The notes under the pieces are model-generated. The model saw nothing but the letters and a program-made list of their open reading frames with translations. It made no database searches and was not told the origin of the DNA. Below are positions 36,765 through 38,468 of a stretch of 64,000 nucleotides of DNA, piece by piece. Positions within the stretch are counted from its first letter, which is position 1. Every line of letters starts with the position of its first letter. Source of the DNA: Escherichia phage CCU7; sequence record PV806175.1; one strand, 5' to 3'. The position numbers and the translations under genes were made by a program.

Positions 36765-38468
36765 ATGGCTTTTACAGTTAATATAACTCCTAAAACACCT
36801 ACTGGAGTTATAGGACAGACCCAGCAGTTTACTGCCACACCTAGTGGTCAGGCTGAAGGTGGAACTATTACATATGCTTGGACTTTGGATGGTGTTCCGC
36901 AAGATGGAGCTGAAGCAACTTTTAGTTATGTACTAAAAGGACCTGCCGGTCAAAAGACTATTAAAGTAGTTGCAACAAATACAGTTCCAGAAGCTGAAGC
37001 TGAAACAGCAGAAACTACTGCAACTATCACAGTTAAAAATAAAACTCAGACAACTACTCTGGCTATAACTCCTGATAGCCCTGCTGCTGGAGTAATCGGA
37101 ACAGCTGTTAAATTTACTGCGGCTTTAGCTTCTCAACCGTCAGGCGCATCTGCTACGTATCAATGGCACGTTGACGGTTCTCCTGTGAGCGAAGCAACTT
37201 CTGCTACATTCAATTACACTCCTACCACAAGCGGAGTTAAAAAAATTAAATGTGTTGCCCAAGTGACGGCAACAGACTATGACACAAAAGAAGTTACTTC
37301 TAATGAAGTATCACTGACTGTTAATAAGAAAGAAAATAATTCTGCGGTCGCTGTTACTCCGGCTTCTCCGGCGCCAGTAGAAATTGGAACAGCAACAACA
37401 TTCACTGCTAATGTAAGCAATCAACCTAGTGGTGCTGCTATTGCTTATACATGGAAAGTTGACGGGACGGCTGTTGACGGTCAAAAGCAATCAACCTTTA
37501 AATATACACCAACATCTGAAGGAACTAAGTCTATAACTTGCTCCGTCACAGTAACTGCAGCTGATTATGTTGATAAAACAGTAGAATCATCGGCGGTTTC
37601 TTTGACTGTAAATAAAAAGGCAAATTCTTCAACACTAAAAATTACGCCTGAGTCTCCGACTACGGTCTTTGGTGTTCCTATTACTTTAACTGCAAATGTC
37701 TCTAGTGCACCCTCAGGTGCTACTACATCATTCCAGTGGTCAATGGACGACAGTAATATTCCAGATGCAACTTCTGCTACGTATAAATTCACTCCAACCG
37801 AGGTCGGAAGTAAAACTCTTAAATGCACCGTATCTGTTTCTGCAACAAATTATGTTACAAAAGAAATTTCAGCAGAAGCAACAGTAGTAACTAATAATGC
37901 GACATTTAATAGTGCCACCATTTCTTTATCTCCGCCATCAGTTAATACTACTGTTGGTGAAACTGCAACTTTAACAGCATCTGTTACTGGTGCTCCGGGT
38001 GATACTAATATTGTGTATTCTTGGAAGAAAGACAACGTAGCAGAAAGTAATTCTACTAATACTTACAGTATTGATACCTCCTCGGCAGGTACTCATACAA
38101 TTAAAGTTGAAGCAGTATTAACTAAAGATAATTATACTTCAAAGACAATTAGTTCAACCGCTGAAGTTGTTATTGCTGAACGGACTCCAATTGAACCAGA
38201 AGGTGAATTACCTTATGTTCATCCTCTTCCACATCGTACTTCAGCTTACATCTGGTGTGGTTGGTGGGTTATGGATGAAATCCAAAAAATGACTGAAGAA
38301 GGTAAAGATTGGAAAATCGACGATCCGGGTAGTAAGTACTACTTGCATCGTTATACGCTTCAGAAGATGATGAAAGACTATCCAGAAGTTGATGTTCAAG
38401 AATCACGTAATGGATACATCATTCATAAAACTGCTTTAGAAACTGGTATCATCTATACATATCCATAA
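36765..38468 (+). CDS. hoc: Hoc, highly immunogenic outer capsid protein with five Ig-like domains
   Basis: 567 aa; N-terminus MAFTVNITPKTPTGVIGQTQQFTATPSGQ and C-terminal capsid-binding LPYVHPLPHRTSAYIWCGWWVMDEIQK... match T4 Hoc; five ~95-aa repeats. Confidence 0.9.
   Translation: MAFTVNITPKTPTGVIGQTQQFTATPSGQAEGGTITYAWTLDGVPQDGAEATFSYVLKGPAGQKTIKVVATNTVPEAEAETAETTATITVKNKTQTTTLAITPDSPAAGVIGTAVKFTAALASQPSGASATYQWHVDGSPVSEATSATFNYTPTTSGVKKIKCVAQVTATDYDTKEVTSNEVSLTVNKKENNSAVAVTPASPAPVEIGTATTFTANVSNQPSGAAIAYTWKVDGTAVDGQKQSTFKYTPTSEGTKSITCSVTVTAADYVDKTVESSAVSLTVNKKANSSTLKITPESPTTVFGVPITLTANVSSAPSGATTSFQWSMDDSNIPDATSATYKFTPTEVGSKTLKCTVSVSATNYVTKEISAEATVVTNNATFNSATISLSPPSVNTTVGETATLTASVTGAPGDTNIVYSWKKDNVAESNSTNTYSIDTSSAGTHTIKVEAVLTKDNYTSKTISSTAEVVIAERTPIEPEGELPYVHPLPHRTSAYIWCGWWVMDEIQKMTEEGKDWKIDDPGSKYYLHRYTLQKMMKDYPEVDVQESRNGYIIHKTALETGIIYTYP

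Follow-up and report, generated by a model that had tools for sequence, protein, structure and literature searches.

No phage protein has been studied more thoroughly for adherence to mucus than Hoc, which also serves widely as a display scaffold on T4. The T4 gene is 1131 nt long and encodes 376 aa, a length that an earlier note on this DNA had given correctly. The structure of the complex of T4 Hoc with gp23* has been solved, and its three-module fibre measures 180 Å (PMC10385173). Fokine et al. 2023 described 650 Hoc homologues with strings of Ig-like modules, numbering from one in PG7 to ten in the 1174-aa Hoc of Serratia phage Muldoon (PMC10385173). A two-module Hoc was described by Fu et al. 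2024, and an SLT motif has been reported as the MUC2 contact in the Hoc of phage PNJ-9 (PMC11853027). In this work, we describe a five-module hoc gene in a 64,000-nucleotide stretch of Escherichia phage CCU7 (PV806175.1; the window). The gene belongs to an RB69-like (Mosigvirus) T-even phage and its five-module form very probably arose by a single crossover between two diverged hoc allele types.

The plus strand carries one intact ORF of 567 codons plus a stop codon at 36765-38468. The 567-aa product matched the PHROG 'Hoc-like head decoration' (E 5e-148) and, by phmmer, the T4 Hoc PDB chains 5vf3/8t1x (E 1e-173). The order uvsW / inh / hoc / 24.3 / 24.2 / rnlB / 24 is the same as that annotated in RB69, FP43 and T4, which places the ORF in the conserved T-even position of hoc, 3' of inh and 5' of 24.3/24.2/rnlB/gene 24. 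Together with a C-terminal stretch of 86 aa that is 97% identical to T4, these results establish the identity of the gene, which the earlier note had also named as hoc. The 14-kb stretch around it shares 96-98.6% identity with RB69-like Mosigvirus phages, the closest being CAU_ECP01. The genes of the locus and the putative signals flanking hoc are as follows.

34522-36036, minus strand: uvsW, upstream of inh
36087-36755: inh, with its stop codon TAA at 36753-36755 and a 9-nt gap before hoc
36754-36758, plus strand: AAGGA, putative ribosome-binding site from sequence reading, its function suggested by position
36765-38468, plus strand: hoc, head outer capsid (decoration) protein, from ORF, PHROG, phmmer and gene order
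38473-38500, plus strand: terminator-like GC hairpin AAGGGGCTTCGGCCCCTT followed by a T-run, from a consensus scan
38564-39012: the small genes 24.3 and 24.2, downstream of hoc
39132-40139: rnlB, after 24.3/24.2
40171-41454, minus strand: gene 24, after rnlB

The putative ribosome-binding site lies 6 nt 5' of the hoc ATG and overlaps the stop codon of inh. The putative terminator hairpin starts 5 nt past the hoc stop codon, and phage NRG-P0074 has an annotated terminator at the same relative place. No T4 late-promoter motif (TATAAATA) was found on the plus strand directly upstream of inh/hoc; the nearest approach there was AATAAATA, a 7/8 match at 36052-36059. Over the whole window, 17 copies of the motif were counted where about 7 would be expected; most are on the minus strand, in front of structural genes. 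One of the 17 sites is 36066-36073 on the minus strand. A tRNA scan of positions 1-64000 returned no tRNA genes, and no Rfam family was detected in the 64-kb window at the gathering threshold.

Several differences in the neighbourhood of hoc were observed. Two homing endonuclease genes of T4, segE in the inh-uvsW interval and segD in the interval between genes 23 and 24, are absent from the corresponding places in the window (36037-36086 and 41455-41876, respectively). In NRG-P0074, a related Mosigvirus, a homing endonuclease separates uvsW from inh, and hoc is apparently split. RNA ligase 2, the product of rnlB, shows a small length polymorphism just 3' of hoc, with 335 aa in the window, CAU_ECP01, Mizar and GCA_004188065.1, and 332 aa in RB69, FP43 and two Logan contigs.

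The window protein consists of five repeats of ~96 aa followed by a non-repeat tail, and can be divided as listed below.

36765-37058, plus strand: Ig-like module 1, aa 1-98, T4/FP43 type by identity; pLDDT about 90, beta strands
37059-37346, plus strand: Ig-like module 2, aa 99-194, T4/FP43 type by identity; ends in S183-L184-T185-VNKK
37347-37634, plus strand: Ig-like module 3, aa 195-290, RB69 module-2 type by identity; pLDDT above 90
37635-37916, plus strand: Ig-like module 4, aa 291-384, RB69 module-3 type by identity; pLDDT above 90
37917-38207, plus strand: Ig-like module 5, aa 385-481, capsid-proximal, RB69 module-4 type by identity
38208-38465, plus strand: C-terminal capsid-binding domain, aa 482-567, 97% identical to T4, RB69, FP43 and UGKSEcP1

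The five consecutive repeats with a common signature that had been read from the letters are visible as such in a five-way alignment. Domain prediction returned five stretches, and not three, that matched Pfam PKD; Ig_2, Ig_3 and I-set also matched, with their best stretches at aa 386-456 in module 5. AlphaFold2, run with a 32-sequence alignment of homologues as input, predicted five beta-sandwiches with pLDDT mostly >90 over aa 1-470, and a Foldseek search with the predicted model retrieved long multi-Ig chains. The protein thus has the N-terminal string of Ig-like (PKD/I-set-like) beta-sandwich modules found in Hoc proteins, here with five folded modules. This is two more than in T4, as had been proposed; relative to its own genus (Mosigvirus), in which RB69 Hoc has four modules, the gain is one module. 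Module 5 is the counterpart of T4 module 3, and its residue D437 aligns with T4 D246.

The tail, aa 482-567, aligns with T4 Hoc residues 291-376 and represents the C-terminal ~90-aa domain of Hoc that is homologous to T4 residues ~281-376; the hits to PHROG 21694 and 1149 ('Hoc-like head decoration') fall on the C-terminus. The high identity to T4 agrees with the conserved capsid-binding module described in the earlier note, and from this identity we infer capsid binding by the window Hoc. The domain is nearly invariant across the 32 homologues, and its low AlphaFold2 pLDDT (46-62) is most likely due to the lack of variation in the alignment there. By analogy with T4, it would dock at the centre of the major-capsid-protein hexamers, presumably with one Hoc monomer per hexamer centre on the mature head.

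The most direct explanation for an additional module would be a recent tandem duplication of a ~288-bp unit within the lineage's own hoc. The modules are nearly equal in length (94-98 aa) and clearly homologous to one another, with alignment scores for repeat pairs 6 to 29 SD above those of shuffled controls. Moreover, the 568-aa Hocs of Tequatrovirus phages such as UGKSEcP1 carry three T4 module-2-type copies, 75-80% identical to window module 2, and unequal exchange between module copies therefore occurs in hoc. Against duplication, the modules of the window protein share only 26-54% identity with one another at the protein level and 49-60% at the DNA level, and Tandem Repeats Finder detected no ~288-bp array in 36000-39000, the only repeat being a 15-nt GAAGCT run. 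The ~288-bp repeats claimed earlier are therefore real and diverged as stated, but they do not form a tandem array at the DNA level; the module repeat is genuine but old. Adjacent units are also not each other's closest relatives, as would be expected of a recent array in place, and each module has a 95-99% identical counterpart elsewhere, modules 1 and 2 in FP43 and modules 3 to 5 in RB69. With a sharp switch of parent inside the gene as further evidence against it, we regard recent duplication as very improbable.

The switch of parent was apparent at both sequence levels. Nucleotides 1-569 of the gene are 99.5% identical to nt 1-568 of FP43 hoc, and nt 553-1704 are 96.1% identical to nt 265-1416 of RB69 hoc and 97.4% identical to CAU_ECP01; over the first 341 nt, identity to RB69 is only 64%. 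At the protein level, module 1 is 99% identical to FP43 module 1, 83% to T4 module 1 and 55% to RB69 module 1, and module 2 is 95% identical to FP43 module 2 and 78% to T4 module 2. Module 3 is 96% identical to RB69 module 2 and 53% to T4 module 2, module 4 is 98% identical to RB69 module 3 and 40% to T4 module 2, and module 5 is 97% identical to RB69 module 4 and 45% to T4 module 3. With the flanks included, an FP43/Mizar tract (34265-37333), continuous upstream with FP43 at 98.3% identity, meets an RB69/CAU tract (37317-40968). The two tracts join at the following feature.

37317-37327, plus strand: recombination junction, the 11-nt word ACTGTTAATAA, codons T185-V186-N187-K188, where the parent switches

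This word lies in the linker after module 2 and is the sole sequence common to both parents at that point. It closes module 2 in FP43 but module 1 in RB69, so that nt 553 of FP43 lies opposite nt 265 of RB69 and the two alleles are offset by exactly 288 nt, the length of one module. A single crossover suffices for the observed mosaic. The five modules of the 'expanded' Hoc of the earlier note are thus confirmed, but the expansion did not take place within one gene; the gene is chimeric, built from two allele types. Since all Mosigvirus flanks are 97-98% alike, mismatch densities there did not reveal how far the exchanged tract extends on either side.

In the proposed event, one parent would have been a T4/FP43-type allele with modules A-Ba-Bb-C and the other an RB69-type allele with modules A'-R2-R3-C'. 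The exchange would have taken place within the conserved linker-coding word ACTGTTAATAA (T-V-N-K), one module out of register, with the end of FP43 module 2 paired with the end of RB69 module 1. The product would be A-Ba-R2-R3-C' plus the capsid-binding domain, that is, 2 + 3 modules. With an offset of exactly 288 nt that coincides with a module boundary, the reading frame and all five folds are kept. For homologous recombination, 11 nt of shared sequence is very little, and the parents may therefore have shared more at the site, or the join may have been mediated by microhomology. The longest words common to both allele types are 14-16 nt; as the junction word is not among them, the strict claim of a recombination hot spot at ACTGTTAATAA was dropped. 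We instead explain the outcome by recombination across a short homology, after which selection favoured products with intact modules.

A junction with just 11 nt in common could also be produced during assembly, if reads of two co-occurring T-even phages were joined across the short shared word. The exact window protein is absent from a collection of 15 billion proteins, and a Megablast search of 50,697 phage records returned no record in which 80% or more of the gene was aligned at high identity; none of the records in the curated phage collection carries the chimera, and the lack of a record with at least 80% coverage there is a consequence of the gene being chimeric. Variants of the same protein nevertheless occur in public data, where a 567-aa protein with 97% identity (P0001) heads a cluster; ten or more distinct 567-aa variants belong to it, each differing from the window protein by 5 to 16 substitutions (97-99% identity). 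Three variants were checked at the DNA level (SRR17833564, SRR18080421 and the NCBI assembly GCA_004188065.1). The samples and pipelines behind these assemblies differ, and the junction is identical base for base in 3/3 of them. Their hoc genes, at 97.5-98.7% identity to the window, show 23-43 scattered differences from it and are therefore independent sequences. In addition, a derivative of 379 aa (P0011) has window-specific residues but lacks modules 1 and 3. Given the same junction in other assemblies and the number of variants, the gene is a circulating allele, and the probability of an assembly artefact is close to negligible.

The NCBI assembly GCA_004188065.1 is a Salmonella enterica assembly that contains a complete T-even phage genome as contig AAACAY010000010.1 (169,407 nt), with the five-module hoc at 1501-3204. 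NCBI nr lists this protein as 'endonuclease' (EAA6275647.1), and several RB69-type Hocs in E. coli assemblies are likewise misnamed 'endonuclease'.

A single junction gives no direction. We infer the direction of the event as a gain from two four-module alleles, and the five-module allele could predate one four-module type. If the five-module form were ancestral, the RB69-type and FP43-type alleles would have been derived from it by module loss and replacement, and in-frame module loss from a window-type allele is indeed seen in P0011. However, RB69 module 1 shares only 55% identity with window module 1, and FP43 modules 3-4 are of T4 type and not of RB69 type; deletion alone would therefore produce neither of the four-module alleles, and a further exchange would be needed for each. 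The identity of the 5' tract to FP43 (99.5%) and of the 3' tract to RB69-type alleles (96-97%) suggests a recent join of separately evolving lineages, and the chimera is rare relative to both the RB69-type and FP43-type alleles. An ancestral five-module form is thus considered unlikely, and a crossover between two four-module alleles is preferred.

The positions at which the window allele departs from the Logan allele P0001/L008 are concentrated in two short tracts, hoc nt 16-135 (36780-36899) and nt 1553-1593 (38317-38357). In the first tract, L008 has the T4 residues and the window has the FP43 residues. This clustering suggests that further small patches of gene conversion may have occurred within the chimeric lineage.

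Other rearranged alleles were found in the protein searches. The fusion points of P0011 are 'MAFTVDITP/GSP' and 'SLTVNKK/ANSST' (the slash marks the join). In P0012 (472 aa), T4-type modules flank an RB69-like module (80%), and P0058 (378 aa) has a hybrid last module. Together with the length classes of 376, 472 and 568 aa, these alleles suggest that hoc has repeatedly gained, lost and exchanged modules in frame. It is conceivable, though we hold the idea only tentatively, that the '...SLTVNKK' linker and the 'xITPxSP' module start serve as in-frame recombination points at which T-even phages add, drop or swap cassettes during co-infection, making hoc a shuffling adhesin locus. The window allele, P0011, P0012 and the 376/472/568-aa length classes would then be products of cassette shuffling, hoc would be comparable to the mosaic tail-fibre genes, and module number and combination would be under selection in mucosal habitats. 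A literature search found no specific description of Hoc module shuffling or of Mosigvirus Hoc variants.

By analogy with T4, the window Hoc would form a monomeric, flexible, acidic fibre; the predicted pI is 5.1 for the window protein and 4.7 for T4 Hoc, both acidic. Two more modules would make the fibre roughly 9 nm longer than the 18 nm of T4, as an estimate from the T4 dimensions, and this longer fibre would combine modules of two lineages. The N-terminal Ig-like string would point away from the capsid and act as an adhesin that binds glycans and cell surfaces weakly and reversibly. The motif S183-L184-T185 at the end of window module 2 occurs again at 279-281 in module 3, and the SLT motifs and D437, the counterpart of T4 D246, are sequence correlates of a putative adherence to mucin or cell surfaces via the window modules. 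That module number may tune adhesion or reach, as had been suggested earlier, is plausible from the literature.

Variable Hoc module number has been published, five-module alleles have been deposited, and public assemblies already contained the same chimera without comment. What the analysis adds is that this form is an out-of-register recombinant between alleles and not a duplication, a detail of how a variant originates rather than a new kind of biology. The chimera demonstrates that Hoc can accommodate additional modules at module boundaries, and a natural allele of two lineages offers a ready-made test case for the effects of module number and composition. The questions opened include whether mucin or glycan binding, gut persistence or antigenicity depends on either.

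Compared with known systems, five modules are not unusual among Hocs and the window gene encodes a known, variable protein in a new allelic form. The searches with tblastn and protein queries found five-module Hocs at 64-67% identity to the window protein, and about fifteen GenBank Tequatrovirus records encode Hocs of 568-570 aa that align with it from end to end. Among the 120 closest clusters at 90% identity, 80 have three modules, 31 have four and nine have five. A search with the C-terminal domain only gave 138 clusters (50% identity), most of ~90 to ~1470 aa, of which 37 are long enough for five or more modules, and the Hoc ORFs in 30 sampled IMG/VR loci ranged from 106 to 1107 aa. The comparison of lengths proposed in the earlier note thus reveals a wide spread, in which T4 (376 aa), RB69 (471 aa) and the window (567 aa) are three points.

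T4 Hoc (PDB 5vf3, 8t1x and others) has the same gene position and is acidic too, but it has three modules against five in the window; the additional two belong to the RB69 type and are distantly paralogous to T4 module 2 (53% and 40%). RB69 Hoc (AAP76093.1) shares the genus-level backbone of the window and has four modules. In RB69-type Mosigvirus Hocs such as that of CAU_ECP01, modules 2-4 and the C-terminus correspond to window modules 3-5 and C-terminus at 96-98%, and the place of the divergent RB69 module 1 (55% identity) is taken in the window by two T4/FP43-type modules. The Hoc of FP43 and Mizar (472 aa), which are Mosigvirus phages with a T4-type hoc, has four modules and a 5' part like that of the window; module 2 is followed there by another module 2 of T4 type and by a last module of T4 type, whereas RB69-type modules follow in the window. 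The five-module Hocs of Tequatrovirus (568-570 aa; UGKSEcP1, YUEEL01, EC101 and T4_ev151, among others) belong to the same length class and have the same layout, but their middle three modules are all T4 module-2-type copies, in contrast to one T4-type and two RB69-type modules in the window. Muldoon (10 modules), PG7 and PNJ-9 (1-2 modules) share the same design of a conserved capsid-binding domain and a variable Ig-like string; they belong to other phage lineages with much lower identity, and the module count of the window Hoc falls in the middle of their range.
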